64,000 bases of DNA from Escherichia coli (GCF_029227855.1 NZ_CP074357.1), one strand, 5' to 3'. Positions 3,884 through 49,038 are shown, counted from the stretch's first letter. Translations and numbers: made by a program. Notes: a model not told the origin generated them from the sequence alone.

Positions 3884-4939
3884 ATGAACAACAGCAAACA
3901 TACAGTCATTGAAGTGGATACTAATCTAGTTGAAATTGAAAAGGGATTTAATCCCCGAGAGGCGGTAATCGGAGATTTGTGTTACGAACAAGAACCTGTC
4001 AAGTCGATGATTGTGTCAATCAAACAAGCCTTTAAGGAAGGAAGGCAGGTTGATATGATCAAGGTCGTAAAAAGAAAAGGTAAATATTTAGTTCGTCAAG
4101 GTCATACTCGTTTTCATGGCTTAAAATTAGCAATTTCTGAAGGTGCTAATATTCCAAAATTATCTGTTATCCTAATCGATTATAAAAACGAAATTGAAGA
4201 ATACCTTGAGAACCTCGATGGTAACAGAAGCAATGGGCTAAATCCGGTTGGGCAAGCTCATGCATTAGCTCATGCTGTTAGTCTCGGGTATTCGGTTGAA
4301 GAACTAGCAATGCGATATCAACGATCAACTACCGCAATTCGTAATATGCTAAAAATCCTTGATATGCCATTAGAGCTTCAACATTTGATTAGCCTAAATC
4401 TAATCAAAAAAACGCTCGCCATTGAAATAATGTTAAAATATTCCAACGATCACAAAATGGTTTTAAAACATATAGAAGGTTTCTTACCTGGCGTTAAGAA
4501 TATTGAGACTACAACGAGCAAAATTGTAGGCATACCTGAACACAATGCAGCTGGAGCAGGACCAGACACCTTAAATAAAGGCGGACCAGAAAAGAAAAAT
4601 TCGGCAGTCACTCGTAAGACTTTGGGTATTAAGCGCCTCTCGCATAAGAAAACAGAACGGCTAAAATCTGAATTTCTTGAGCTTGTGGAAAGTACACATA
4701 CGGAATCTATAACGAATACTCAAACAGAACTAAAATTTGGTAGAGATAGTGCACACTTGTTCAAAAATGTTAATAGTAATAATGTAATATTTTCCAATGA
4801 TGGTGTTCAAATAATCTTGAATGATGAAAAGCTAAATATTTTATTGTCTTTACTTAACGACGAAAATACAGCAATCATTGTTTCTAAACCAAAATTAGAA
4901 GAGCTTCTGGAAATTCGAGATCTCCTTAAGGAATATTAA
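3884..4939 (+). CDS. ParB/KorB-like DNA-binding protein (ParB N-terminal domain plus HTH), paralog 1
   Basis: 351 aa; GFNPRE and VRQGHTRFHGLKLA (ParB-box-like) then HTH SVEELAMRYQRSTTAIRNMLKILDMPLELQ; RBS AGGAGG. Confidence 0.75.
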   Translation: MNNSKHTVIEVDTNLVEIEKGFNPREAVIGDLCYEQEPVKSMIVSIKQAFKEGRQVDMIKVVKRKGKYLVRQGHTRFHGLKLAISEGANIPKLSVILIDYKNEIEEYLENLDGNRSNGLNPVGQAHALAHAVSLGYSVEELAMRYQRSTTAIRNMLKILDMPLELQHLISLNLIKKTLAIEIMLKYSNDHKMVLKHIEGFLPGVKNIETTTSKIVGIPEHNAAGAGPDTLNKGGPEKKNSAVTRKTLGIKRLSHKKTERLKSEFLELVESTHTESITNTQTELKFGRDSAHLFKNVNSNNVIFSNDGVQIILNDEKLNILLSLLNDENTAIIVSKPKLEELLEIRDLLKEY

Positions 4940-6967: not shown

Positions 6968-7801
6968 CTATTTCAGCACGGCCAGTATTTCTGTTTCCGT
7001 TTTCCGTGTATTCGGCTTACTTCCTACGGATCGGTAAGCGCTGAGTCTGTGTATGACGAATCCACGCTCTTCATAGAGGCCCAAAGTGAATGATGTCAGG
7101 CTATTTGATATCGCAACAGCAGCGCCTTTTCTGTGAGCGTCAACGAGCATATTTGCTAACAGCACGTGGTCGCTTTGGCTGAACGGTTTACCATCGTAAC
7201 TGACAAAACTAGTTTTGCTTGTTTTGTCATATGGCGGATCACAGTAAATCTGATCTCCTTCACCGGTTGCGGCCAGAGTCTCCTCAAAACCAGCGGTGAT
7301 CAGTTCAATACCTGAAAGACGAAATGAAAGGTAGTCTATTTTATTGAGGTCAAGCTTCAGTTCTGTATGTTTCCCCCACGGCACTGAATAGATTCTTTCT
7401 GAGTTATAGCGGCACATACCGTTATAGCCCAGGCGATTCAGGGAGTAAAACAAAGCCGCTCTTTGAAGCGATTGACCAGAAATACAGGTTTTGTTGAAAC
7501 GGTCCCTCATCTCATAGTAGTCCTTTTCGACAAAGGTTTTATCCGCCAAGTTTTGGACCTGATTTATAAAGTTAGTTTTCTGTCTTTGAATAGTCCTGTA
7601 TAGGTTGATCAAGTCTGGATTGCTATCTGCAAGCAATGCATTTTGTGCAAACATGTTCAGAAAAACGGCACCACCGCCTATAAAGGGTTCTACCCACCGG
7701 CAACTATGATCGTGTGGGTAGTGATGGCTGATGAAAGGCATCAGTTTCGTTTTTCCACCAGCCCATTTGATTATCGGCATGTGTCTGAGATGTCGAGTCA
7801 A
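6968..7801 (-). CDS. Dam-family N6-adenine DNA methyltransferase (alpha class)
   Basis: 277 aa; IIKWAGGK, EPFIGGGAVF (motif I), CDPPY (motif IV), NRLGYNGMCRYN; near-colinear with recalled E. coli Dam. Confidence 0.9.
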   Translation of the reverse strand: MTRHLRHMPIIKWAGGKTKLMPFISHHYPHDHSCRWVEPFIGGGAVFLNMFAQNALLADSNPDLINLYRTIQRQKTNFINQVQNLADKTFVEKDYYEMRDRFNKTCISGQSLQRAALFYSLNRLGYNGMCRYNSERIYSVPWGKHTELKLDLNKIDYLSFRLSGIELITAGFEETLAATGEGDQIYCDPPYDKTSKTSFVSYDGKPFSQSDHVLLANMLVDAHRKGAAVAISNSLTSFTLGLYEERGFVIHRLSAYRSVGSKPNTRKTETEILAVLK

Positions 7802-8056
7802 AGTGTCTATACCTGAGAGAGAAATTTAGGTGCTGGTATCGTACCTAACCACGGGCTTTAACTAATAACTTAGGGAGCAAAAAAAAGTTGTTTAAGACGC
7901 ACAGTTTTGACTTTCAGCATTTCGGATTTATAAGATTTTTCCTCACTTATACCTGAACTTTATGTTTTGGATTTATGTATTTGTTTATGAAGCGATTTTT
8001 ATGCCATCACAAGTAATGGGGAGCCACCTTTTTTTGTAAAAAATCAGAATAGGCTC

Positions 8057-8069
8057 AAAAAGTACCTTT
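8057..8069. repeat. Variant copy of dispersed palindrome (AAAAGTACCTTTT)
   Basis: One mismatch to consensus; 93 bp upstream of parB-like gene 8150. Confidence 0.45.
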
Positions 8070-8149
8070 TTTGCGAAAAATTATGAATTTTTTTTTCGGT
8101 AGTATCCCCGCTACGCAGAAAGTAAGCAGAAAAATGTAACGGAGCCCCT

Positions 8150-9313
8150 ATGAGTGTTTTACTGACAGAACCTACACAGCAAGCTAATGACAAGGTCTTT
8201 AAAACGGCCCATGTTGCCTTTTCAGTAGTTACTGGCACAGGCCGTTACGTCACTGGGCTTAAACAGTTCCGTGATGCAAACCCTGAACTTTGTACTGAAG
8301 TAAGTGACCAGAAAGCATGGGCTATCCACCCTTCAGTAATTCAGGTCACGCCAGGCTTCAACTCCCGCGAAATGGGAATGGGTGACGATTACTATAAGCT
8401 CCCTGAGGTTGAAGAACACATCTACAACATCAAGAATGCCTACATTCGAGGTGACTATGTAGACCCTATCCGAGTACGTGTCATTGATGGGGTACCTTTT
8501 GTTCGCCAGGGGCACTGCCGTTTAAAAGCCGCAATGATGGCATGTGATGAAGATCATGACATCACAATCCTTTGCGTTGAGATTAAAGAAGATGAAATTG
8601 GCTGTGAGCTCGCGACCATTGATGGTAACCGTGGTCTTGCGCTTTCTCCTGTTGCGCTTGGCGAGTCCTATCGTCGCCTACATTCTCTTGCTGGCTGGTC
8701 ACTCGAACGAATTGCTCAACGTGAAAATAAAAGCCCGACGACCATCAGTTCTCTTATCCGCCTGACAACCTGTTCTGTTGTTATCAAGAAATGGATTCAT
8801 GCTGACGCTATTTCGTATGTTAACGTGCTTTCACTGATCGATGAGCTCGGCGAAACAGAAGCAATTTCACGTATCAAGAAGATGATCGCAGAACTTGAGC
8901 AGGCCGATGCGAATGGCATCACGGTGAAAAAAACCCAACATGGTCAGGTACGAGTCAGACCTTCAGACTTCAAGCCAGCACGGATTCCGCCGGTTATTGC
9001 CACAAAAGCCGTAGAAGGCGTCAAACTCATCACCACCAGCTTATTACAGAAACTGGGGGATATTGAATTGCCGGAGCTGACAGATTCAAGTGCTGACGAA
9101 GAAATCAACATTACGTTGAACCGCAGTACTCTGGAGATGTTGAGAAATCTTTCAAAAGAGATCACAGAATCAGAGAACAAGCAGCTTCGCCGTGCGGAGA
9201 ATCGTCAGGCAAAACTTAATGGTGAGAAGCCAAAATACCCACGTAAAAAAAATGCTAAGAAGGCAGGGGAAGAGACCGATCAGGATACTGACCCACAGCC
9301 GGACGCAGAATAA
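8150..9313 (+). CDS. ParB/KorB-like DNA-binding protein, paralog 2
   Basis: 387 aa; GFNSRE and VRQGHCRLKAA, HTH LERIAQRENKSPTTISSLIRL; acidic C-terminus. Confidence 0.75.
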   Translation: MSVLLTEPTQQANDKVFKTAHVAFSVVTGTGRYVTGLKQFRDANPELCTEVSDQKAWAIHPSVIQVTPGFNSREMGMGDDYYKLPEVEEHIYNIKNAYIRGDYVDPIRVRVIDGVPFVRQGHCRLKAAMMACDEDHDITILCVEIKEDEIGCELATIDGNRGLALSPVALGESYRRLHSLAGWSLERIAQRENKSPTTISSLIRLTTCSVVIKKWIHADAISYVNVLSLIDELGETEAISRIKKMIAELEQADANGITVKKTQHGQVRVRPSDFKPARIPPVIATKAVEGVKLITTSLLQKLGDIELPELTDSSADEEINITLNRSTLEMLRNLSKEITESENKQLRRAENRQAKLNGEKPKYPRKKNAKKAGEETDQDTDPQPDAE

Positions 9314-9560: not shown

Positions 9561-11252
9561 ATGTCATCTCTTGATTCTGAAGCTAAACCCGATAATGCAG
9601 GTCACAGCGTACTGGCTTTAACAACCTCTCATAGCCTGGTGGTTAGCTCTCCTGAAACATTTCTTCCAGATATGCGCAAAGAGCTCGGCATTATCGCGGA
9701 TCTTGTTGAGTCCTATAATGATGAACTCTGCTTGTTGAAACTCATGGCTGTCCAGTTCAAAACCCACAATCACCAGAAACTTTATTCTTATCTCTCAGGC
9801 TACAACCACAGCATCTCAGAAGCGGATGCTTTGTTCGCAGAAAACGCTCTGAGATCAGAATACTGGAAACGCGTTATGGCACTCACTGATGTTTTGCCTA
9901 TCATGTCGGATGCCAAACGTAACGAATGGGATAAGCAGTTTACGGCCGACCGTTATATTATGCCGCCTCAGGTGATCCCTGATTTCACAGCTGACGCTGT
10001 AGTGGGCACAGTCGTTGCTTTGCTTAATGACCGCAATCAATTTATTAAAGAAAGGGTTTACGACGTCTTCCAGTCTCTGAGCCGCAGTCACAAGACAAAC
10101 AAAGCTTTTGGGTTCTCCACCCGCATGATCACTACCGGAGTTTGCGAGCCGTCTAAATACCCCTGGCAGAAATTAAGGGTGGATTTTAAAGAGTCTGGCA
10201 TTTCACCGCTGAGCGAGCTCCGCGTTATATGCGCATTCTTCCGTGGCGAACAGGTGAAGGCGATCCATAACACCAAATCATTGGTTGAGGCGTTGGTCGA
10301 ACATGAGGGGTTCAGAAAATGGATCTGCATCGATGGCAACAGTATTCGTTTCAGGGTTTACAAAAATGGATCAATGCATATTGACGTCCACCCTGATATC
10401 GCCGAGCGGCTTAACAATATTTTATCAGCTATCGTACCGCTGGCATTACCTGCCGACCGTATGGCTCATAGCAAGAAATCTTTGGAGGCATTCCCTGTAC
10501 TTAAGCAGTGCATCGACTTTGATACCCGGATGCAGCTTTCTGAACTGATGTTTAAAAATGACGGGGACAATAAATGGAGTTGCTGGACATCTTTAGGGTC
10601 TCTCGCCGAACGCAAATCTTCGAGTGTTGCCGCTGACACCCTTCGGTTCTTAGGGGCAACAGTAACAAAATACGATGTGACATTTTCCTATGATCCGTGT
10701 GAGGTTATTCGTTACATCGGCCAGATAGGGGAGATGCCTGATATTGTATCGCATCAGTTTTACCCTTCATCTTGCCGAATCAGCGAATATGTATCTTCCC
10801 TGCTTGGTGCAGGGGAAGGGGATACCCTCCTGGAGCCTAATATTGGCCATGCGGATTTGCTTAAATCATTCCCTGCCGGTGTGATCGTTACTGGCATCGA
10901 GCTTGATACTTTGAATTGCCTTATCTCCCGGGCTAAGGGATACGATACGACAGAAGCTGACTTCCTCACATGGTCTAAGTCTAATCAACAGAAGAAGTTT
11001 GATTATGTCGTGATGAACCCACCTTTTGCCGATAACCGGGCCAGGCTGCATCTCCAGGCAGCTGCATCTCATCTCGCAGCCGGGGGATCTCTAGCAGCCG
11101 TTCTTCCATTATCTCTTCAGGGGCTCGATAACCTTTTGGGGGAAGAATTCCGGACGGAATGGATGGACGTTTTTGAGAACGAGTTTGAAAACACGACCGT
11201 TTCGGTTCGCATCCTGTACGCCGAACGTATTCAACAAGAGGAAGTCCTATGA
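9561..11252 (+). CDS. N6-adenine-type DNA methyltransferase with large N-terminal domain
   Basis: 563 aa; C-terminal catalytic region with EPNIGHADLL (motif I-like) and VVMNPPF (motif IV); paralogous to the MTase domain of 28362-29186. Confidence 0.75.
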   Translation: MSSLDSEAKPDNAGHSVLALTTSHSLVVSSPETFLPDMRKELGIIADLVESYNDELCLLKLMAVQFKTHNHQKLYSYLSGYNHSISEADALFAENALRSEYWKRVMALTDVLPIMSDAKRNEWDKQFTADRYIMPPQVIPDFTADAVVGTVVALLNDRNQFIKERVYDVFQSLSRSHKTNKAFGFSTRMITTGVCEPSKYPWQKLRVDFKESGISPLSELRVICAFFRGEQVKAIHNTKSLVEALVEHEGFRKWICIDGNSIRFRVYKNGSMHIDVHPDIAERLNNILSAIVPLALPADRMAHSKKSLEAFPVLKQCIDFDTRMQLSELMFKNDGDNKWSCWTSLGSLAERKSSSVAADTLRFLGATVTKYDVTFSYDPCEVIRYIGQIGEMPDIVSHQFYPSSCRISEYVSSLLGAGEGDTLLEPNIGHADLLKSFPAGVIVTGIELDTLNCLISRAKGYDTTEADFLTWSKSNQQKKFDYVVMNPPFADNRARLHLQAAASHLAAGGSLAAVLPLSLQGLDNLLGEEFRTEWMDVFENEFENTTVSVRILYAERIQQEEVL

Positions 11253-24487: not shown

Positions 24488-26908
24488 TTACTTCAACTCG
24501 TCGATCTGAATCATGAATTCTGAGGTGCCAACTTTCCCATTTTCGGAAGGATAAACGGGTAACAGAAGATTATCCCCCTGGCCCATATCTATTTGCACCT
24601 CAACTGACTCGCCTGGAGCCGCCTGTGCCCCATTAAATTTAATACCGAAGGCTGCATCCTTCCGCACAGTCAGCGTTGCGTTCTGGACCCCTTTAGCAAT
24701 TTCTCCATTTGTCTTACGCAGAACGTTAGTGGACAGGTACGCAAGTGGTACGCCATCTGTCGTTTTGAGAGGTGAACTGACCGACAATGTGCGTAGATTA
24801 TGTAACTGCACAAGGTTATTCGGTAGATAACTGAACTTCTGAGTATAGGTTTTGGTATTCGACTGACTATCGGCAACTGTTACGCTAATTGAATAATTTT
24901 CAGATGGTTCGAAATTTGGGAACAGCCTCGGATACTCAGGCATGTATGTATCTTTGCCTGCCGGTGACCACGTAAGCTCAACGTTATCAGCTGTGGGGCC
25001 ACCTACGAGCTGAAGACGGGTTATCCTCGGGGTTGTCAGATTATCTGCCAGAGCGATCCTGAGGTTCTCCAGGCCGTACACTACCGTATCGTCTTTTACC
25101 GGCTTTCCGTCGAATGTTATGGCCACTGTCGGAGGAGTGTTATCCAGAGCAATTTCTCCGAAAGTTTTATTGGTCTGGTTCTGGAAGAAGTCCCTGATGT
25201 TGACCTCAACGTTGTATTTTCCTTCAGACTGACGGGATAAATCATAAGCAATCGTGTAGTTACCTGAGATACGAGATTTGATTACGCCTGTTGGTGACAT
25301 CCGGGTACCGGTGTTCTTATCGGAAAGATAAAATTCCCTCAATGAGACCGAGTCGAACCAGTTACCATCGCCTTCAAGTGACGCCAGTACATCCAGCTGC
25401 TTGTTAGTCTCGTCATATGATATCGAGTTTATTACCGGCAGTTGTTTATTGTTCCAGCGTGTCATAATCCATTGCTCAGACCGCAAAATGGGATTGCTGA
25501 TGCTGCGAACGAAGTAAAGGATTCTATTGTAGCCCTGGGTACCCAAGGCCATATCAAACGTCTCAGGCGCTTCACACGAGGTTTTTCCTGCCGGAATGGT
25601 GCAGGTCGCCTTACCGCCGATCTCCTGTGCAAAGGGCCGGGCTTCAACGTTAAAACGAAGTCGGGAAATTTTAATTGGCAGTCGTGATGAAGCCACACTC
25701 TCAAAATCCTTCCACTTAACCCAGTTCCCCTTATCATCGAGGAAATCTACCCAGGTACCCGCAAATGCAGGCGTTTGGTTTGCAGATGGGTTTAGAACGA
25801 GGCTGTATGACGGATAATACCCTCCCCACTGGCCAAAGTTCGCCATACGAGCCATATCCCCATTAATTGAGCCATAGGGAAGAGTCATTTCAACATAAGC
25901 ATAAGTGCTGTCTACAGCTATCTCTTTGGGGGCGGAATATTGATTGATGAACTGAAGCCCACCTTCTGAATAAGCACGGTAGTTAGATTTTGGGATCCGG
26001 TAGACTAATCGAATAGGGTTTTCGTTAACGACCATACCGGCTTTGTAAGCCGGATAATTAGAAACCCCGGGTACGACGCTGGAAGACGTATTTGGATCAT
26101 GAACGGCCCACAGTGTCATCTCACCCAGCGTGTTGTCGTAGCGAAATTTTTGAGTTGGCAGCGTTCGGCTATTACCTGCGTTATCGAAGATAACAACTTT
26201 TGCAGTAAAGTCTTCATCCAGGTTGCTGTCTGGTATTCCGGTTCCCTTAACTGAATTCTTAGAGTAAGTGTGGTACATCTTTTGGCCGGATACGTCATAC
26301 TGCATCTGTGTAGTGCTGTAGAGGCTACCGTCCTGCCTGTAAATATATATTAGGCCCTTATCAATACCATTTGCATCACTTACGCCCGAAGAGGTGAAGT
26401 CATACTGCCCCGTTGCCTCTAATCCAAGCTTCCACACGTCACCAGCGGTAGAGCCAGAACCAGTATTAGCGGTAAGAGCATTTGCCGCTGGAGGGGTGAC
26501 ATCAATTAGCCAGTTATAGTTATAGGTCGCTACAGGCTTCTGATTGAGATCTAACACGTTTATCTGAACGACAAATTTGCCTTCACCCAAAGCAGGCAAA
26601 GTTACTTTTTTGCCGTAGAACTCACTACCGTCAGCAGCTGTTAGTCGGTCTGATACACCCGTCCGTGTAGTCGTAGTATTAAGAATGACAGTTCCAGTGT
26701 CTTTCGTGACTTTGACATTAACGAAACGATCAAGACCTGAAATAAGTGTCAAAGTTACCGGTGATGCCGGATTAAGCATAAGACGAGAAGACGGGGCGTG
26801 GATCTCAATACCGTTCGTGTCCTTAAAGGCCGATTCATATATCTGAGCTGGGGCCTGAACAGACATACCGAGTCCGGCTACAGCAGTAATAAAAGCGAGA
26901 TGTTTCAT
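24488..26908 (-). CDS. Large secreted Ig-like-repeat protein, paralog B
   Basis: 806 aa; signal peptide; LIDVTPP and ALDNTPPTVAI motifs; conserved C-terminal block. Confidence 0.7.
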   Translation of the reverse strand: MKHLAFITAVAGLGMSVQAPAQIYESAFKDTNGIEIHAPSSRLMLNPASPVTLTLISGLDRFVNVKVTKDTGTVILNTTTTRTGVSDRLTAADGSEFYGKKVTLPALGEGKFVVQINVLDLNQKPVATYNYNWLIDVTPPAANALTANTGSGSTAGDVWKLGLEATGQYDFTSSGVSDANGIDKGLIYIYRQDGSLYSTTQMQYDVSGQKMYHTYSKNSVKGTGIPDSNLDEDFTAKVVIFDNAGNSRTLPTQKFRYDNTLGEMTLWAVHDPNTSSSVVPGVSNYPAYKAGMVVNENPIRLVYRIPKSNYRAYSEGGLQFINQYSAPKEIAVDSTYAYVEMTLPYGSINGDMARMANFGQWGGYYPSYSLVLNPSANQTPAFAGTWVDFLDDKGNWVKWKDFESVASSRLPIKISRLRFNVEARPFAQEIGGKATCTIPAGKTSCEAPETFDMALGTQGYNRILYFVRSISNPILRSEQWIMTRWNNKQLPVINSISYDETNKQLDVLASLEGDGNWFDSVSLREFYLSDKNTGTRMSPTGVIKSRISGNYTIAYDLSRQSEGKYNVEVNIRDFFQNQTNKTFGEIALDNTPPTVAITFDGKPVKDDTVVYGLENLRIALADNLTTPRITRLQLVGGPTADNVELTWSPAGKDTYMPEYPRLFPNFEPSENYSISVTVADSQSNTKTYTQKFSYLPNNLVQLHNLRTLSVSSPLKTTDGVPLAYLSTNVLRKTNGEIAKGVQNATLTVRKDAAFGIKFNGAQAAPGESVEVQIDMGQGDNLLLPVYPSENGKVGTSEFMIQIDELK

Positions 26909-28361: not shown

Positions 28362-29186
28362 TTAGCGGCGAAGATCAATTTCAAGGCGGGCTGTTTTGAC
28401 CTTTGTTCCGGACTCCCTAAATGTATCATCCGGAAGAGGCGAAATTTGTCCGCCAAGTTGTTTGACTCGCTCCCTGAGCGCTTTTGTCAGTGTGTCTTCC
28501 CGGAACAATACCCCAGCTGACAGAATGGCCTGTAAGCGACCTCGCTTAGCGAGCATTGCGATGGCATGCATGACATGTTTAACGTCAGAGCGTTTAAGGA
28601 ATGGTGGATTCATAACGATAACATCAAAAGTTTCATCGGGCTGGTACCCAAGAAAGTCGGTATGCACCAGCTCGGCCCCTGTGCTAAGGACACTATCGTT
28701 CTTCACTGCAAGGAATCGCTCATCGTTCAATTCGATCCCGGTAATCAATGCATCCGGAGCCGCCAGTTTTAAGGCTTTCAGAATGCGGCCATCACCAAAC
28801 TCAGGCTCCAGAACACGTTCCCCGGCAGCTGGTTCAGCGCGTAGAACCATATCTGTGACTAAATTCTCAGGGGTAGGGAAGAAATTGAACAAATCACGTG
28901 GGATGTCGACCGAACCTGTCAGAATGATTTGCTCGATACGCTCAGCTGCATCCGCCGTAAAAATATGTGCCTGCTCTTTTCGGTTCCATTTGCCACCGGC
29001 AGCTTCCAGCACTTTGTTTGTCTTAACATAAATGCTGCGGTCGAGCTGGTCGGCCAGGAAAAGAAAGTTCCCTTCAGCACGGCAGCGAGATAAGACGTTC
29101 AGAACTTCAGTTGAGATTTGCATTAAAACTCCATTAAGAGGATTTACCCGCCTGGCGGCAGCGGGTTGGTTACTTAAACAGGACAA
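28362..29186 (-). CDS. N6-adenine-type DNA methyltransferase (NPPF motif)
   Basis: 274 aa; LEPEFGDGRILK (motif I-like), DVIVMNPPF (motif IV); paralog of the C-terminal domain of 9561-11252. Confidence 0.78.
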   Translation of the reverse strand: MSCLSNQPAAARRVNPLNGVLMQISTEVLNVLSRCRAEGNFLFLADQLDRSIYVKTNKVLEAAGGKWNRKEQAHIFTADAAERIEQIILTGSVDIPRDLFNFFPTPENLVTDMVLRAEPAAGERVLEPEFGDGRILKALKLAAPDALITGIELNDERFLAVKNDSVLSTGAELVHTDFLGYQPDETFDVIVMNPPFLKRSDVKHVMHAIAMLAKRGRLQAILSAGVLFREDTLTKALRERVKQLGGQISPLPDDTFRESGTKVKTARLEIDLRR

Positions 29187-30288: not shown

Positions 30289-30813
30289 TTGAAACCGATG
30301 CTCAAAAAAGATTTTTTTTCAGCTATTGAAAACCTTCTCAAAGCTGGCTTTCAACCTCGCTTTTACACTGTTAACAGTGGACGAATCGGTCTCATTACAT
30401 TCACTGATAAAAATGGAACAAAACAGGTCGAACAGGTTTATTCCTGCACTTCTTTAGCCGCCAATACTTTTGGAAAGCGCTTCACCACATGGTTAGAAGA
30501 AATTTTTCAAAAGCATAATGAAAAAAAAGTAGCTGATTCCGGGATCGAGGTTGGTAGCCGTGTCTGGGATAAAATGATGTATACGGTGCGCACCATTTCA
30601 GAAATTCGTGCTGGGGGGGTGCTGGTGCTGGATAACGGTGCACAGCGTACTCTGGATGAAGTTCAAAAAACGGCTCCTGAAGCAAACCAGGTAGAGCCAA
30701 AGGAAATCTCTTCACTTAAGGAGCTGCTGAACGCTTCCAAAAATCTGGAGCCGACTTCGCCTGAACTAATTGCGGCTCTTAATGAGGCTCAGTCAACCGC
30801 CATAAAACGGTGA
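30289..30813 (+). CDS. Hypothetical protein
   Basis: 174 aa. Confidence 0.5.
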   Translation: MKPMLKKDFFSAIENLLKAGFQPRFYTVNSGRIGLITFTDKNGTKQVEQVYSCTSLAANTFGKRFTTWLEEIFQKHNEKKVADSGIEVGSRVWDKMMYTVRTISEIRAGGVLVLDNGAQRTLDEVQKTAPEANQVEPKEISSLKELLNASKNLEPTSPELIAALNEAQSTAIKR

Positions 30814-30916
30814 ATGCAACGGCAGTCTGGCACATCAGGCCTTGTCAGAGATTAGGCCTGAAAAGCACTTACGTACCGATATAACACCTAATTCCCCTTT
30901 AAGGAGATTGCCCTAA

Positions 30917-31354
30917 ATGGCGATGAATAAAAAAGAACAAGCCGCCTATGATGAGCTGGTGGCACAGGCCAGAATAAACCGCGCTTTACGCTGGTCTGAC
31001 TATAGCGTTGAACGCGATATGCCCGTACCAGAGGTCTCGGGGGAATACCAAAACGGCTGGAGCTTCAACACCGCCACTGGCACTGTTTATCCGACATGGA
31101 GCGGAACTACGGTTCACGGCACACGGGAAGAGGGAGAGGTTGTCGATGCAACCTCCCGCCGCATGCGAGGCATGAATGGTAGCCAGAACGGCATACCACA
31201 ATACAGCACCAAAGAACGCGCCCTGAAGGCATTACGCTGTTCGCTTGAAATCAAGTTTGCTATGCAGCTGGATGCCGTAGATAAAGCAATCGCAAAAGAA
31301 TTAGAGTCGTCCACCGCTCGCCGGGAGAGCGATACCTCAGATGCCAAACGGTAA
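30917..31354 (+). CDS. Hypothetical protein
   Basis: 145 aa; RBS AAGGAG. Confidence 0.5.
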   Translation: MAMNKKEQAAYDELVAQARINRALRWSDYSVERDMPVPEVSGEYQNGWSFNTATGTVYPTWSGTTVHGTREEGEVVDATSRRMRGMNGSQNGIPQYSTKERALKALRCSLEIKFAMQLDAVDKAIAKELESSTARRESDTSDAKR

Positions 31355-31598
31355 ACCATCAAATCAGGCCCGTGATCAGAGGGGCCTTAACGCCCTGAAA
31401 GAGGCGGTTCCAGCGACGGCACAACTACAGATGCGGGTTACCCCTGATCGGAAACTGCGTTACGTCAATCAGGCAAAGGCCGAAGGCCTGGGTCTAACAG
31501 ACTGGGTCCAAAAGCATATGGATAACGTGTGTGATCTGGCAGGCCAGCCCGACACAACCATGTACAAAGATGATGGAGAAACAAGTGGCCAAAAATAA
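31341..31598 (+). CDS. Hypothetical small protein; paralog of the N-terminal part of 57229-57585
   Basis: 85 aa; shared block QMR.T..RK.RYV.QA..EGL.L..W...H.D.VCD. Confidence 0.5.
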   Translation: MPNGKPSNQARDQRGLNALKEAVPATAQLQMRVTPDRKLRYVNQAKAEGLGLTDWVQKHMDNVCDLAGQPDTTMYKDDGETSGQK

Positions 31599-31805
31599 CA
31601 ACAGTCTCAAACAGCATGTCTTCAATATGCTGTCGGCTGGCAGCGAACTTAAAGAAGTGAAGCGTTTTCTCACCAGCAAGCGCCTTAAAGCCCGCCCAGC
31701 AGTGTTAATGATCCACGAACAGGCGATTGCTGTGCAGAACACTGAGTACCTGAATAAACCGGCTTATAGCTAACTGGTAACAACAATTAAAGAGAGATAT
31801 TTAAA

Positions 31806-32326: not shown

Positions 32327-32460
32327 CTTGTATTTTTGCATTTACGTAAACAAAACAAGTCCCGCCGGGCAGAAAAGAAAAACATTAAAATTAGCTATTT
32401 TCCCGAAAAGATCTCGAACACTGAAAAAGTATCATGGGGAACCTGATCAGGAGACAACCC

Positions 32461-42653: not shown

Positions 42654-42823
42654 TTTGCAAAAATGAATATTAATCCTGAACAATATTAATTTAAGATGAG
42701 GTGGTGTTCATATTCTTCTTAATATTTTTTCTAAAAAAACGACTTCAGGTTATTAGTTGGTAGTAGTGTGTTTGTTATGATCTTCTCATCAAATACATTA
42801 ATTAAATAATCAAGGAGTCAACT

Positions 42824-43615
42824 GTGGCAGATAATTATACTCTGGCGTCGTTTATTATTCCCTGCACTCAGGAGCAGGCTAAAATGGCACAAGAAGCAAT
42901 CACATTCGTTACCGAAGCAGAAATTGCAGAAGGTGAGCGTTTGCTTGATAAGCCACTGGCAGATTGTTCTCTGACTGAGAAGCTGATTCTCAGTATTATT
43001 GAGAACCACCCTGAGTATGACCCTTCAGAGCCGAGCTTTGGGCAACCATCCTGCCCAGACTGTAATTATGAACTGTCGTTCGCAACAGAAGTTAACAGCA
43101 GTGGGCTGTCAGTTTTTCATGGAGAGACTATTGATCTTGACCATGCAATTTGCCTCACAACTGCCGTGCTGTCGGTATTCGACCTCCCGGAAATGGTAAC
43201 AATTACTGCTGCATTTACATGCAGTAAAAGCCGGACAGATGAATTTGGGGGTATGACTATTCTGGTCACAAAGGATACCCACTATTACCAGGATGGCTGT
43301 CAGTTTTCTCGTCTCATGAATGAGGCTCACAAAGCCGGTATCCAGTATGCTCTGTGTAAAGTGACGCATTACCACGGTGAGAGCAGCTATGTGGCAAGCT
43401 ATGTCCTGAGCTGCGACGTAGCGGATTCAGCCCAGGAGGTCGTTAACAGACGACTGAAGGCATGTGCCGGAAAAGAGCCAGAAGACGGAATCTATATTCT
43501 GAGTGAAGAAGACAACACCAGTCTTTCGGTCGAACTCGTTACAGAACTGTCTCCGCTCGATTACGACAAGCTGAGCAAGCTTCTTCCTTCCCTTGACACC
43601 CTTTGCGGCGCATAA
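42824..43615 (+). CDS. Hypothetical protein
   Basis: 263 aa; RBS AAGGAG. Confidence 0.5.
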   Translation: MADNYTLASFIIPCTQEQAKMAQEAITFVTEAEIAEGERLLDKPLADCSLTEKLILSIIENHPEYDPSEPSFGQPSCPDCNYELSFATEVNSSGLSVFHGETIDLDHAICLTTAVLSVFDLPEMVTITAAFTCSKSRTDEFGGMTILVTKDTHYYQDGCQFSRLMNEAHKAGIQYALCKVTHYHGESSYVASYVLSCDVADSAQEVVNRRLKACAGKEPEDGIYILSEEDNTSLSVELVTELSPLDYDKLSKLLPSLDTLCGA

Positions 43616-43666
43616 GCCTGCCTGATAACCGTAGCCACCGGTTCCCCCGGTGGCCTGGAGCCTGCC

Positions 43667-44116
43667 ATGACCAATAAATTCATAGTATCTACCGTTGTTT
43701 GCATCAATGACTTTGCAAGTGATGTTCCGCAAAGTGTTTCCTTACGGATAGATACAATGCTTGAACAGCGTATCCGCAAATTGGCGACATACGTGAAAAA
43801 AAACGATCTTCAGTTAACTGAGTTTTACTTCTATGACGCTAACTGGTCATTTTGTGGTGAAGATGAAATTCAAGAAATAACAGACCAGGATGAATATAAG
43901 CATAGCGATAGCACAAGGCAGGAAGCGATGCTGCGGGAAGTAATGCCATCAGCACGTACGGAATGCCCGGTTATTAGGGTGATGAAAGATTCATTTCAGC
44001 TTTCTGCTCTACCACGCCATTGTGGTGATGACATGACTCTTAACACTCCTTCAATTCCGCTGTCTGAGTTGAAAACAAATGTCACGGCTTTTATTACACC
44101 ACCAACCTATATCTAA
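43667..44116 (+). CDS. Hypothetical protein
   Basis: 149 aa. Confidence 0.5.
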   Translation: MTNKFIVSTVVCINDFASDVPQSVSLRIDTMLEQRIRKLATYVKKNDLQLTEFYFYDANWSFCGEDEIQEITDQDEYKHSDSTRQEAMLREVMPSARTECPVIRVMKDSFQLSALPRHCGDDMTLNTPSIPLSELKTNVTAFITPPTYI

Positions 44117-44288
44117 TAGCTGTGCTGGGAGATTAAATTACAATGGGTTTTTATTTTAAATCTATTTAAGAATTAAATTTGCGTGATTTTGATTTAATAT
44201 AATTTCGCTAAATGGTTGCGCTGTAGTTATTTTAAAGTTCTAATAAAAATATCAGTGATGCAGCATATGCCGTGGTTCAGGAAAATAT

Positions 44289-46673
44289 ATGTTTATTGAA
44301 AAAAGTGACTCATTCCTTGAATTACCCTCAGAAGTTATTTTTCCTGAGGCGGCTAATGCTGCCATTTTGAAACATGATAAATGGGCTGATGTTTGGGAGA
44401 CCCTGACAACCGATGCCGATCTGAACTATACCGATGAAAAGGAGACTGTGAGTCTTTCTTCTCTGGTCACGTCAGCCACATCTGCTATTTATCAGGCTAT
44501 TACGGACGGATGGACGATGTGCGTGGGATACAGTGGCGGTAAAGACTCCCATTCTCTTCTTCACCTATTTCTGATGGCATTGATCAGGGCAGTACGTAAC
44601 GGCACAAATATCAGCGAACATCATTTCATTCAGATGTCCGATACGCTGATCGAAAACCCTGAGATGCACTATCAGGCTTCACAGGTTCTCAACCAGCTTA
44701 GAATGTTCATTGCTGAACACCAGCTACCGGTCACAGTCCTTGTCGCCCAACCGTCTCTTACGCAGAGCTGGGTAGGCCGCATTCTGACTGGACGTGGACT
44801 TCCGACCTGGACTAATTCTTCAACCCGTCAGTGCTCAACCGACTACAAAATCGCCCCCCTGCGCAAGGCCAAAGCTCGTTATCTAAAAAACGCCCCGGCA
44901 TCCGTACGAAGCAGGGTATGCCTGATGCTGGGCTCCAGGGATGATGAAAGTGCCCGAAGGGCCGGAAATATCCTCAAAATGGGAGGGCAGGCGAGGAAAG
45001 TAACCCTGACTGAGCACGGTGGTGAACTCTATCCAGTAAAGGAGTGGCGCACTCAGGACATCTGGTCTTTTCTAATGGCCTGTGGTTCCGAATCCCGCTT
45101 CCCTTTACCAAGCTTTATGCCGGATAACTTCAGCCTGGCAACGCTTTATAAAGACGCCACCGGAGAGTGTATCTGGTCGCCGGAGAAACCCACGCGAACC
45201 TCAGCTTGTGGGGCTAGATATGGGTGCTCGCTTTGCACAGCCGTAGGGGTTGACCATTCAATGGAAACGCTCCTTCGCACTGACCCTGAGAAATATGGTT
45301 ATCAGGCAGGCCTAAGTCGTCTTCAGCGATTTCTTTCTAAGATCCAGTACGACTGGAGCCTGCGGGATTATATCGGTCGTAAAGTGTTCGAAGGCGGGTA
45401 TGTGCGTCTTCAACCCAATATCTTTTCTTCGTCCCTGACTGAACGTCTTTTTCATGTCTGTTGCAGCCTTGATTATGTTGAAGCCAGACGTGCGGCAAAG
45501 CATCGCAGAAAGCTACTTTCCGGCGAGGTGGACGATACGGCTTATAACCGTCGTATGGCTGAGCCACAATTTCGGCTTGTACATGAAGCAAACGTGATCC
45601 ACGTTGATTTCCTCTGGTCGTTGCACTGTTTCAACCCTCGCCCGTTTCGGGCAATTGAGATCTATCGCAGAGTCTGGGAAGAGGCCGATCTGGACCTTCT
45701 TGAGGATGAGCCTGACATGCTGCCTGTGGCCCGTACACCAATGCCAGCTCCACTCTGGATGAAACTGCCCGGAGGCCGGTTCGGTACAGCTTATGATGGA
45801 CTGACTGATACGTTGCCGCTGATGACCTATTTTGACGGGCAGGCTGACCCCAGGGCTTCACGTAGCCTAAAGACCGGAGAGAGCAGTTCTGTCGTCGTGG
45901 CATTCGAGGAAGAGGATGAGCTGACTGTTGAAGAAGATACGGCGTCCTGGATTATCTGGCATGAATACGACGGGTTACGCCAGAGCATCGCTGACGGTGA
46001 GTTTACTCCAACGACTGCTGCTCAGTATCTTCTTCGTTATGGCGCGGTCCGAATTTCAAAAGGGAAGGGCGCTGTCTATCATCGTCTCGCACAACGGGGA
46101 CAAACCTTTTCCCGCCTGGGGATAGGCGAAAGAGTGTCGCTTCCAGAGCTGGTTGCCAGTCGGCGTTTTAAAATACTCAGCGATACTGCATACCGTCAGG
46201 TTGTAGCCCGGAAATTGCGTGGACAGATAAAAAAGTTCAGATTCTGGGCATGCGTAGCTGCCTGTGTACAGTTGCACGTACACAACAAGACGGCACTCGG
46301 AGAAAGAATCTTAACGTTACTCGAAGGTGAGAGGGAACAGCAACAAGGTGCGATCCAGGCGAAGCTGAAGGCGGGAATGATGGATGCAGTTCTAACTCTG
46401 TGTAACCAGCGACTCCGGGTGAAAGAAAATACTAACCAGCCAGAGGAGTTCCGCTATTACCGTGCCGTAAGAGCTCGTTTCATGCGCCATTTATCTGAAT
46501 GCCTTAAGCCAGAAAATGGCGGCGTTATCCGTGACGTTATCTGGGAACTGAGGGTGCTGAGCAGTGCTCACGGTACGACCAAAACAGGTTTTTACTATGT
46601 CGATAGCAATCGCCCGACAGCGAAAGGACTGTTAAACCGCCTTCTGATGAGGATGGTCAGGCAGGTCGTATAA
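44289..46673 (+). CDS. PP-loop ATP-pyrophosphatase superfamily protein (PAPS-reductase / DndC-like) with long C-terminal extension
   Basis: 794 aa; PP-loop CVGYSGGKDSH; Cys cluster ACGARYGCSLC; C-terminal roughly 450 aa unassigned. Confidence 0.7.
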   Translation: MFIEKSDSFLELPSEVIFPEAANAAILKHDKWADVWETLTTDADLNYTDEKETVSLSSLVTSATSAIYQAITDGWTMCVGYSGGKDSHSLLHLFLMALIRAVRNGTNISEHHFIQMSDTLIENPEMHYQASQVLNQLRMFIAEHQLPVTVLVAQPSLTQSWVGRILTGRGLPTWTNSSTRQCSTDYKIAPLRKAKARYLKNAPASVRSRVCLMLGSRDDESARRAGNILKMGGQARKVTLTEHGGELYPVKEWRTQDIWSFLMACGSESRFPLPSFMPDNFSLATLYKDATGECIWSPEKPTRTSACGARYGCSLCTAVGVDHSMETLLRTDPEKYGYQAGLSRLQRFLSKIQYDWSLRDYIGRKVFEGGYVRLQPNIFSSSLTERLFHVCCSLDYVEARRAAKHRRKLLSGEVDDTAYNRRMAEPQFRLVHEANVIHVDFLWSLHCFNPRPFRAIEIYRRVWEEADLDLLEDEPDMLPVARTPMPAPLWMKLPGGRFGTAYDGLTDTLPLMTYFDGQADPRASRSLKTGESSSVVVAFEEEDELTVEEDTASWIIWHEYDGLRQSIADGEFTPTTAAQYLLRYGAVRISKGKGAVYHRLAQRGQTFSRLGIGERVSLPELVASRRFKILSDTAYRQVVARKLRGQIKKFRFWACVAACVQLHVHNKTALGERILTLLEGEREQQQGAIQAKLKAGMMDAVLTLCNQRLRVKENTNQPEEFRYYRAVRARFMRHLSECLKPENGGVIRDVIWELRVLSSAHGTTKTGFYYVDSNRPTAKGLLNRLLMRMVRQVV

Positions 46674-47721: not shown

Positions 47722-47781
47722 CTTCAGCGGTTACTTAAGCCAGCTCCTGTGCCCGTGAGATTAGTAAAGGCGGAAAATGAT

Positions 47782-48315
47782 ATGGTCAAGGTGATAAATA
47801 TCAACGGGAATTTAGTTGAGTTACCTGAGCCCTCAGCAAAGTTATCCAAAGCGGAATCACCTGATGGTAGGTTCTCAAAACCTAAAAATAAGATCTCTAA
47901 AATACAGCGAGCTGAGCTGCGAATGAAATTTGGGGGGCGTTGTGCCTATTGTGGTTGCAAGCTTCCTGAAAAAGGGTGGCATGCCGATCATGTTGAGCCT
48001 GTTCGACGCGACTTTGAACTGGTGAGAGCCCCGGTCGGCAGCGGCGTAACTCATGTTGCCCGAAGTACGGGTAAGGTTATGCACCCTGAACTGCATGCAA
48101 TAGAAAACTTATTTCCATCATGCGCTCCCTGCAACCTTTTTAAAGGAGCTTTTAGTGTTGAAGGAATGAGAAATGAAATTACCAAACAGGTTGAACGGGC
48201 TCGCGCATATAGCGTGAATTTCCGTACCGCAGAACGTTTTGGTTTGCTTCATATTGTAGTAAAACCGGTCGTCTTCTGGTTTGAGCAGTATAACGAACAG
48301 AAACAAAACGAATAA
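47782..48315 (+). CDS. HNH endonuclease-domain protein
   Basis: CAYCGC...WHADHVEP...N...CAPCN; start chosen at the ATG with RBS AAAGG (the ORF track begins at GTG 47749). Confidence 0.65.
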   Translation: MVKVININGNLVELPEPSAKLSKAESPDGRFSKPKNKISKIQRAELRMKFGGRCAYCGCKLPEKGWHADHVEPVRRDFELVRAPVGSGVTHVARSTGKVMHPELHAIENLFPSCAPCNLFKGAFSVEGMRNEITKQVERARAYSVNFRTAERFGLLHIVVKPVVFWFEQYNEQKQNE

Positions 48316-48426: not shown

Positions 48427-49038
48427 ATGATGTATCTGCATCTTGTGCCACGTATTCTTCACCATATGAAAAACAAGTGTACTCTCATGTCCGTGTCTGT
48501 CCCTGAATTGTCACTTGAGCTTAAAGCTGATTCGCTGGTGGCAATGAAACCCTATCCCAACAAGACCTACCACGTTGGCATGCTGAAGGGGCGACGAGCA
48601 TTAAATGGCTTTCTGGTAAAGAGCCCACGAACTTTAGCTGAGTTCACAATGATAACGCTCTGGGAAATAGACGGCTTTGGGGAAATTAGTCATACCGTAA
48701 AAACGCTCGTTCAGGACAACGACTATGACCTGGTCTCCCACGATGTCCTTTTGGCACATGCATACCATCAGACGGAGGAGGGATTGGGGTACCGTGTTCA
48801 TCCATCCTATGACAGTTTAGCCCCTGTCGATTTTGAGCCAACAATGCAATCCCGGTACATAAAGGAATCCGACCTTTCTCACGACGTATGGGAAACCTAT
48901 TCATGGGGGGAATTTCTGCGTTCGCGTGAAGAGACATTTCTGGCGATGACCATTTCTTCTTCTCGTTTAAACCACCCTGCATTTATCAGAGGAAACCGGC
49001 TTCCTCAAACTGACCAGGCCATCATTATTAGTTCCTAA
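48427..49038 (+). CDS. Hypothetical protein
   Basis: 203 aa; RBS AAGGAG. Confidence 0.5.
   Translation: MMYLHLVPRILHHMKNKCTLMSVSVPELSLELKADSLVAMKPYPNKTYHVGMLKGRRALNGFLVKSPRTLAEFTMITLWEIDGFGEISHTVKTLVQDNDYDLVSHDVLLAHAYHQTEEGLGYRVHPSYDSLAPVDFEPTMQSRYIKESDLSHDVWETYSWGEFLRSREETFLAMTISSSRLNHPAFIRGNRLPQTDQAIIISS

Follow-up and report, generated by a model that had tools for sequence, protein, structure and literature searches.

Three Co-Oriented ORFs on an IncHI2 Plasmid Backbone

The stretch of DNA analysed here, hereafter the window, comprises 64,000 nucleotides of an Escherichia coli replicon (GCF_029227855.1, NZ_CP074357.1) and corresponds to the backbone of an IncHI2 plasmid. We focused on a 3.85-kb region of it (positions 42,824 to 46,673) and, within this region, on the gene of a 794-aa protein resembling DndC, an enzyme of phosphorothioate (PT) DNA modification systems. 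A first reading, made from the sequence without any database (the sequence-only reading), had placed three co-oriented open reading frames (ORFs) of 263, 149, and 794 aa in the region, and all three were recovered where it had put them, on the + strand (Table 1). The region is found at 95% identity or more in 1,006 plasmid records, in exact register with pSA186_MCR1, an IncHI2A, MOBH, MPF_F plasmid. The 794-aa protein differs by a single residue (C738 vs Y738) from its cluster representative P0001, which stands for 1052 member sequences; in related plasmids, its gene carries the RefSeq accession WP_000469466.1 and the product name "phosphoadenosine phosphosulfate reductase family protein" (PAPS stands for phosphoadenosine phosphosulfate below).

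Anatomy of the 794-aa Protein

The 794-aa ORF is a real gene. Purifying selection is detected on every domain of its product. With an IncHI2 variant of 96% identity, the ratio of nonsynonymous to synonymous substitution rates (dN/dS) is 0.14; with the IncHI1 orthologue, which is 76% identical, it is 0.06, although dS is then about 3, i.e., saturated. The AlphaFold2 (AF2) model, built from a 28-sequence alignment, reaches a mean predicted local distance difference test score (pLDDT) of 87.2 and is uncertain only at aa 1-28, predicted to be disordered, and at aa 299-309, a loop that falls inside the cysteine cluster. The SGGKDS PP-loop and the cysteine cluster announced by the sequence-only reading are both present, and the five cysteines concerned do not vary among 28 homologues, the most distant of which are 25% identical.

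The other segments of the protein are conserved to very different extents. The acidic N-terminal segment contains a DKW...DLN motif kept in the plasmid subfamily only, whereas residues R359, P376, D395, E398, F428, and W443 of the segment at aa 331-445 are invariant throughout the family. The module at aa 446-645, with its invariant A455, P486, G504, G585, and R603 and its KGK...QRGQ motif, has no match in Pfam or in the PDB. The basic tail (aa 646-794) is the fastest-evolving part of the protein (dN 0.43 against IncHI1); it occurs only in the subfamily of about 800 aa carried by IncHI2, IncHI1, IncC, and other MOBH plasmids and is missing from the 669-aa and 626-aa plasmid versions as well as from the 560-700-aa phage and environmental versions.

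These results modify what had been proposed about the length of the protein. The supposedly unassigned C-terminal extension of about 450 aa shrinks to about 350 residues, as aa 331-445 align with DndC. The protein is indeed about 300 aa longer than our reference canonical DndC (511 aa, from the complete dndABCDE operon of pTiCFBP5473), but it is not unusually long for its own family, whose members range from 560 to 880 aa. On the family alignment, most of its length is a family-wide conserved property and not a peculiar add-on.

Table 1. Coordinates of the features discussed in the text (positions in the window unless a locus is given).
Feature	Position	Strand	Evidence or remarks
Gene for the 794-aa orphan DndC-like protein	44289-46673	+	ORF call, AF2, dN/dS
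AGGA ribosome-binding site of the 794-aa ORF	44279-44282	+	6 nt before ATG, direct sequence reading
aa 1-59, acidic N-terminal segment	44289-44465	+	Isoelectric point (pI) 4.1, net charge -9
aa 60-330, PP-loop ATP-pyrophosphatase domain, then cysteine cluster	44466-45278	+	
PP-loop SGGKDS, aa 82-87	44532-44549	+	S82, G84, K85, D86, and S87 family-invariant
Cys182	44832-44834	+	Invariant; aligns with canonical DndC Cys in R-x-C-(S/T)-x-x-x-K
Cys cluster C294...C307-G-A-R-Y-G-C313-x-x-C316	45168-45236	+	All four invariant, each opposite a DndC Cys
aa 331-445, beta-hairpin and long helices	45279-45623	+	Homologous to C-terminal part of canonical DndC
aa 446-645, conserved alpha/beta module	45624-46223	+	Shared across the whole family, lacking in DndC
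aa 646-794, basic helical tail	46224-46670	+	pI 10.1, net charge +12
orf263	42824-43615	+	263-aa protein, no Walker A motif
orf149	43667-44116	+	149-aa protein, no Walker A motif
Promoter-like site TTCTCA-16-AATAAT	42783-42810	+	Just 5' of orf263; weak consensus match
Terminator-like hairpin and T-run	42636-42658	+	3' of small ORF 42340-42597
orf108, small unassigned ORF	41948-42274	+	Homologue in Citrobacter MOBH plasmid (L030)
Two DNA methyltransferase genes	39066-39686 and 39855-41105	+	Same orientation as the 794-aa gene and 3.2 kb from it on the 5' side; genomic context
Short PAPS-reductase-family genes	L045 (IncC NC_021667.1) 30551-31666; L043 10399-11412; L044 2423-3565		
DndB-associated proteins of about 90-100 aa	L048 8607-8879 and 11079-11381; L004 13891-14181; L047 8095-8400		

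Relationship to DndC

In order to place the 794-aa protein among named enzymes, it was scored against curated models. It obtained 117.6 bits on TIGR03183 and 129.9 bits on PRK06850, the two DndC models, for curated cut-offs of 290.4 and 536 bits, respectively, while canonical DndC from pTiCFBP5473 obtained 665 and 667 bits. The PADLOC DndC models gave 127-130 bits, with an alignment reaching aa 474 for PDLC02661, and four other members of the family scored 120-146 bits on DndC models, also below the cut-offs. Because these scores lie far under cut-offs that canonical DndC clears, we regard the family as related to DndC without being its orthologue.

The relationship itself is best seen when the family alignment is compared with canonical DndC by hhalign: aa 60-445 match DndC 24-386 with a probability of 99.95% (E 1e-38, 29% identity), and the PP-loop as well as C182, C294, C307, C313, and C316 all fall on their DndC counterparts. 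In DndC, the PP-loop and these cysteines underlie an ATP pyrophosphatase activity, a [4Fe-4S] cluster, and a persulfide sulfur relay (PMC10853773, PMC6435447). Other models are far weaker. PADLOC BrxP gives 23 bits (E 4.7e-6) over the PP-loop only, and models of housekeeping enzymes, a better match to which would have refuted the sequence-only reading, reach 17.8 bits (TtcA) and 24 bits (Pfam PAPS_reduct), against 118-130 bits on DndC models; no ECG, and so no ECG(L/I)H as in assimilatory PAPS reductases, occurs anywhere in the 794-aa protein. With the 586-position PADLOC DndC-type models, the score is 76 bits and the alignment is limited to aa 66-332; neither DUF4007 nor a Mog1p/PsbP-like domain could be detected, and two models of PAPS-Dam-type fusions, PADLOC MTase_II PDLC03333 and PHROG 33262, match aa 65-334. 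Judging from these scores, DndC is the closest named family by a wide margin.

The protein had been likened to DndC, IbrA-type, and BrxP-type enzymes acting on DNA or in defence; the DndC likeness stands, as does the DNA-related setting, an accessory part of a conjugative plasmid rich in DNA-modification genes, but membership in any of the three families fails on their defining features. Canonical DndC was rejected for the sub-cut-off scores and the lack of a DndD or DndE neighbour, BrxP for its 23-bit score and the lack of a neighbouring BrxC-type ATPase, and IbrA for the lack of an adjacent ParB/IbrB gene and of DUF3440. A housekeeping PAPS reductase or tRNA thiolase was set aside on low scores and the missing ECGLH motif.

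A Large Family on Plasmids and Temperate Phages

A profile search over 1.84 billion representative proteins (clusters at 50% identity, E ≤ 1e-30) assigned 790 clusters to the family, with conservation over the core at aa 60-640; nearly all of the best 150 cover aa 45-630 of the protein, with the exception of a few truncated entries. By tblastn, 2,658 plasmid records were found to hold homologues (2,062 are predicted to be conjugative): IncHI2 plasmids (>95% identity), IncHI1 plasmids (75%, including protein Q935R1 of pHCM1), IncC plasmids (47%), a Citrobacter MOBH plasmid, MOBF-type plasmids of 70-100 kb, one MPF_I plasmid, and plasmids of Pseudomonas, Alteromonas, and Burkholderia. Full-length members are also present on eight temperate-phage-like contigs, and a profile scan of genome contigs gave 11 loci. 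AFDB50 returned uncharacterised relatives only, and literature searches by accession, name, or context retrieved no paper on the 794-aa protein or its family.

Informative fusions were sought with Pfam in 32 long members of the family, which yielded PAPS_reduct only, plus one DUF4262 and one KfrB. The KfrB domain lies at the C-terminus of a 707-aa member (P0125, L053 6001-8124) encoded on an IncP-like element, with a topoisomerase gene on one side and parA/rdgC on the other. The tails of the family are thus add-ons of a variable nature.

The gene is dispensable to IncHI2 plasmids, because about a third of the IncHI2 records are without an intact copy: at least 80% of the region is found in one piece in 658 of 1,006 IncHI2-type records. 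In an IncHI2 lineage of Enterobacter hormaechei (L031 1-6452), for example, the first 311 codons have been replaced by a large P-loop NTPase gene, itself interrupted by IS3, which leaves a 470-aa C-terminal remnant annotated as hypothetical.

Genomic Neighbourhoods

We compared the context of the gene in about 30 loci from distinct lineages, 27 of which were used for ORF clustering. No neighbour is universally conserved, and clustering revealed within-lineage synteny only. Members of the family are found within arrays of accessory genes on plasmids and within the early regions of temperate phages; on phage contigs, the gene is located between a CI-like repressor and the O/P replication genes, beside one or two DNA methyltransferases. 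Methyltransferases are also met on plasmids, with a dcm-type gene 1.8 kb upstream of the DndC-like gene in IncC, and close to the gene in three other loci (L034, L048, and L052), while a TGT/DpdA-like gene adjoins it in L038.

A partnership with ParB-like proteins of the IbrB or DndB type had been suggested by the sequence-only reading, which had seen ParB-like proteins elsewhere in the window. There are indeed three such paralogues (3884-4939, 8150-9313, and 60384-61568), none of them adjacent to the gene, but in other replicons they are unlinked to it, bar one located 4 kb upstream in L030; a partnership with them is not demonstrable. The DndB part of the suggestion fares better: DndB (Pfam PF14072, E 6e-44) is encoded immediately upstream in two plasmid lineages, p14-95A and the 669-aa group, but not beside the 794-aa gene.

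DndB itself has a life of its own on plasmids, with homologues in 1,077 plasmid records. A solo DndB/DGQHR gene is located in the leading region of IncL/M plasmids (L046, pCTXM360, 6980-8263), in the company of RadC/JAB, DUF4942, ssb, and an antirestriction gene; in plasmids the size of pOXA-48, the solo gene is split by IS1B. Plasmid-borne DndB is accompanied, with or without the DndC-like gene, by small proteins (about 90-100 aa) that form one family and have no similarity to DndE (Table 1).

Some other associations were noted along the way. In two unrelated loci (L043 3954-5484 and L054 1843-3408), the gene is directly preceded by a PRTRC cassette (ThiF-like E1 and E2-like genes), a link that might point to a sulfur relay of the ubiquitin-like or thiocarboxylate kind. 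A second, short gene of the PAPS reductase family (337-380 aa) is present on the IncC plasmid NC_021667.1, where it adjoins repA, on Alteromonas pAMED10_300, and on Pseudomonas pPME5. Finally, a homologue of orf108, which is found 2 kb upstream in IncHI plasmids, lies directly upstream of the DndC-like gene in the Citrobacter plasmid (L030 6516-6881).

The Upstream ORFs orf263 and orf149

The two ORFs that precede the gene evolve as coding sequences (dN/dS 0.26-0.35). orf263 shares 59% identity with its IncHI1 counterpart and is otherwise found only on IncHI-type plasmids, and orf149 is confined to IncHI1 and IncHI2, bar one weak match on a Thalassospira plasmid (31.5% identity, E 2e-11). The conservation of the three-gene block in other replicons, which the sequence-only reading had proposed to verify, thus extends to IncHI1 and IncHI2 and nowhere beyond these two.

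Neither ORF has a match in NCBIfam, PADLOC, or PHROGs, nor does orf263 have one in Pfam. No similarity was detected between orf263 and DndB, or between orf149 and either DndE or the small proteins associated with DndB, and the ORFs flanking the 794-aa gene resemble neither ParB nor DndB. As diverged DndB or DndE partners, orf263 and orf149 were tried by BLASTP, phmmer, hhalign, Pfam, NCBIfam, PADLOC, and PHROGs, and nothing came out. As far as such comparisons can tell, the two are not evident partners of the DndC-like protein.

The promoter-like site preceding orf263 is possibly the start of an orf263-orf149-DndC-like transcription unit; one has to keep in mind that the promoter scan returned 4 sites for 9.0 expected from shuffled sequences, i.e., fewer than chance. 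The hairpin located further upstream may separate the three-gene block from the genes that precede it.

Proposed Function and Rival Explanations

The homology to DndC, the conserved catalytic residues, the size of the family, the solo context of the gene, its dispensability, and the purifying selection acting on it are all observed facts; Fe-S binding, sulfur chemistry, a DNA substrate, and a role in counter-defence are what we infer for the 794-aa protein. Put together, they lead us to propose, with a probability of about 40%, that this stand-alone sister family of DndC carries out an ATP-driven transfer of sulfur to nucleic acid in the service of plasmid counter-defence. By sequence, the protein retains the whole catalytic set of a competent DndC-type enzyme. 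The PP-loop would perform an ATP-dependent adenylation or activation, and the five cysteines would hold a [4Fe-4S] cluster and relay persulfide sulfur as in DndC, the sulfur being donated by the host cysteine desulfurase IscS. The target would most probably be the backbone or a base of the mobile element's own DNA, with the module at aa 446-645 binding the substrate in place of DndD and DndE, and the basic tail would be an addition of the plasmid lineage. The enzyme would thus act as a dispensable accessory factor of counter-defence or establishment, akin to the orphan methyltransferases that accompany it. A precedent is offered by a phage PAPS-reductase-Dam fusion belonging to a two-gene segment through which the phage escapes Dnd defence. 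A catalytic enzyme seems preferable to a mere decoy because the catalytic residues are invariant down to about 25% identity, and DNA appears to be the likeliest substrate because of the DndC homology and of the DNA-modification genes found in the neighbourhood.

Several points weigh against this proposal. Every demonstrated PT system needs a P-loop/ABC ATPase partner, namely DndD, SspC, or BrxC (PMC12914056), and no such ATPase, nor DndE, adjoins the gene in the IncHI2 region or in the roughly 30 related loci; likewise, no cysteine desulfurase is encoded next to the gene at any locus compared, and the searchable literature contains no experimental report linking PT or another modification to these plasmids. 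The position of the gene does not help either. Anti-defence genes of leading regions occupy the first-transferred region beside the origin of transfer (oriT), where the T-strand serves as template (Samuel et al. 2024, PMC11541004). The genes mobI and traD and the relaxase gene of pSA186_MCR1 are located about 25-33 kb downstream of the gene, outside the window; the IncHI2 oriT, inferred to lie upstream of mobI, would be some 31 kb from the gene, beyond traD and traI on the side of the relaxase gene; the co-oriented + strand array that holds the gene points toward it. In IncC plasmids, the gene is 67-100 kb away from mobI and oriT, a distance that lends no support to placement in the leading region. 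An early-entry role is not supported, because the gene is not consistently near oriT.

The published PT surveys demanded a neighbouring ATPase (PMC12914056), a filter that would explain why the family went unremarked. A bolder version of our proposal, which we find doubtful, takes the missing partners at face value: the protein would be a single-polypeptide DNA sulfur-modifying enzyme working without a DndD/SspC/BrxC-type ATPase or DndE and targeted by its own C-terminal module. It might act on the DNA of the incoming element while this is single-stranded or has just been replicated, and it would leave there a portable phosphorothioate or thio-base mark blunting restriction. If true, this would be a fourth, minimal route to DNA sulfur modification, carried by the main IncHI2, IncHI1, and IncC resistance plasmids.

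The same lack of partners can be read in another way, as a sign that the protein interferes with the PT immunity of the host (Dnd or Ssp). Its targets would be IscS/DndD/DndE, SspB/SspC, or the DndFGH/SspE effectors, which it would join, titrate, or misdirect, so that the incoming plasmid would be modified faster by the host system or would escape restriction. A protein devoid of partners of its own that nevertheless keeps aa 60-445, the DndC region of the IscS-DndC-DndD-DndE complex, would suit this role, all the more so as a phage PAPS-reductase-Dam fusion belongs to a two-gene anti-Dnd segment and as the hosts (Salmonella, E. coli, Vibrio) belong to genera with known Dnd and Ssp systems. 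We nonetheless hold this explanation to be unlikely: Dnd and Ssp systems have a sporadic distribution (PMC8569181), unlike the family, which is diverse and found very widely; the strict invariance of the PP-loop and of the five cysteines suggests catalysis beyond binding; and the 200-aa family-specific module is without a DndC counterpart. Still less likely, in our opinion, is a defence or exclusion system of the plasmid in which the protein would mark the DNA of plasmid or host and a linked effector would attack phages or rival plasmids. The DndB gene adjacent in two lineages, the HNH endonuclease gene 1.1 kb downstream in IncHI2 and IncHI1, and the C5 methyltransferase and HATPase_c_3 genes nearby in L052 speak in its favour, but no effector-type neighbour is kept across lineages, PADLOC sees a DndC-like domain only and no system partner, and placement in the early region of temperate phages suits counter-defence better.

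The substrate might also be something other than DNA. TtcA, TtuA, NcsA, and LarE are [4Fe-4S] PP-loop enzymes acting on non-DNA substrates, and the family could similarly act on RNA (for example, tRNA of the host or the plasmid), on a nucleotide, or on a small molecule, by thiolation or some other modification; the TtuA-, NcsA-, and LarE-like folds and the PRTRC links are consistent with this. Similarity to DndC at 118-130 bits, against 18 for the tRNA thiolase, pulls the other way, as do the recurrent neighbours, which are DNA-modification genes (methyltransferases, TGT/DpdA-like, DndB), and the PRTRC link concerns only 2 of about 30 loci; we place this possibility slightly below interference with host PT immunity and above a plasmid defence system. 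As for the function that the database name literally implies, that of a metabolic enzyme of sulfate assimilation (PAPS reductase or FAD-synthase type), it is scarcely credible in view of the Pfam score of 24 bits against 118-130 bits for DndC models, of the absence of the ECG(L/I)H C-terminal catalytic motif, of the five-cysteine DndC pattern, and of a gene exclusive to mobile elements whose product has 460 further conserved residues unrelated to CysH.

Sulfur transfer to nucleic acid by a stand-alone DndC relative is, in our view, the most likely reading, and its interest goes beyond the protein itself. IncHI2, IncHI1, and IncC plasmids rank among the major vehicles of multidrug resistance, and their large accessory backbones are mostly unannotated; mcr-1 plasmids (pSA186_MCR1) and pHCM1, the IncHI1 plasmid of typhoid, are among the relatives of the window. 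The family is present on more than 2,600 sequenced plasmids, yet it is labelled "PAPS reductase family protein" in every database; judging from the comparisons above, it is an undescribed orphan sister family of DndC on mobile elements, with a conserved C-terminal module that has no match among solved structures. Should the enzyme modify DNA alone, ideas on what DNA sulfur modification minimally requires would have to be revised, and plasmids would be credited with a new counter-defence function influencing host range; should its target be something else, a new Fe-S PP-loop chemistry would be at work on mobile elements.

Other Features of the Window

The IncHI2 backbone of the window is unusually rich in modification genes, with at least five DNA methyltransferase genes (6968-7801 on the - strand, 9561-11252, 28362-29186 on the - strand, and the two listed in Table 1). 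The three ParB-like paralogues all belong to PHROG 1033, and the second one (8150-9313) directly precedes the methyltransferase gene at 9561-11252, which codes for a 563-aa protein of the DUF4942 type. Downstream of the 794-aa gene, at a distance of 1.1 kb, genes for an HNH endonuclease (PHROG 2118, 47749-48315) and a DUF6012 protein (48427-49038) are kept in IncHI1 too. Three ORFs of about 805-818 aa, named "Ig-like domain-containing protein" in relatives, flank the RepHI2 gene (16370-18826, 24488-26908 on the - strand, and 32434-34851). Insertion sequence (IS) elements of the IS21, IS66, IS5, and IS3 families interrupt the backbone (149-1950, 12425-13960, 14277-15245 on the - strand, and 54935-56304), IS66 being the GC-rich segment of the window (0.60); these elements account for the divergence between the window and pSA186_MCR1 upstream of about 24 kb.

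Comparison with Known Systems

Among known systems, DndC is the one with which the 794-aa family shares most, i.e., the SGGKDS PP-loop and five aligned cysteines, including CG-x-R-F/Y-G-C-x-x-C. The last 125 aa of DndC are, however, replaced here by a conserved module of about 200 aa and a 150-aa tail, and the family is a solo gene of mobile elements, with no DndA, DndD, or DndE nearby.

The IbrA/IbrB pair of E. coli prophages associates a PAPS-reductase-like protein with a ParB-like protein. Like IbrA, the 794-aa protein is a PAPS-reductase-like protein of a mobile element, and the window also encodes ParB-like proteins; unlike the IbrA/IbrB arrangement, the nearest ParB-like gene is 13.7 kb away from the 794-aa gene, whose product has no match to DUF3440.

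SspD of SspABCD and BrxP of type 4 BREX have in common with the 794-aa protein a PP-loop/PAPS-reductase-type catalytic domain, and they too are DndC variants with different C-terminal additions (PMC12839542); the 794-aa locus differs from theirs in having no SspC or BrxC ATPase, SspB, or PglZ. The last system to be considered is the PAPS-reductase-Dam fusion of Vibrio crassostreae podoviruses, located in a two-gene segment that gives escape from Dnd defence (bioRxiv 10.1101/2021.05.05.442762). This fusion is a 479-aa protein in which a short PAPS domain is joined to Dam without the 300-aa conserved C-terminal region, whereas in the 794-aa family the methyltransferases are separate genes; what the two share is a PAPS-reductase-type domain on a mobile element, a coupling to DNA methyltransferase, and an implication in counter-defence, which for the plasmid family is the role that we propose.

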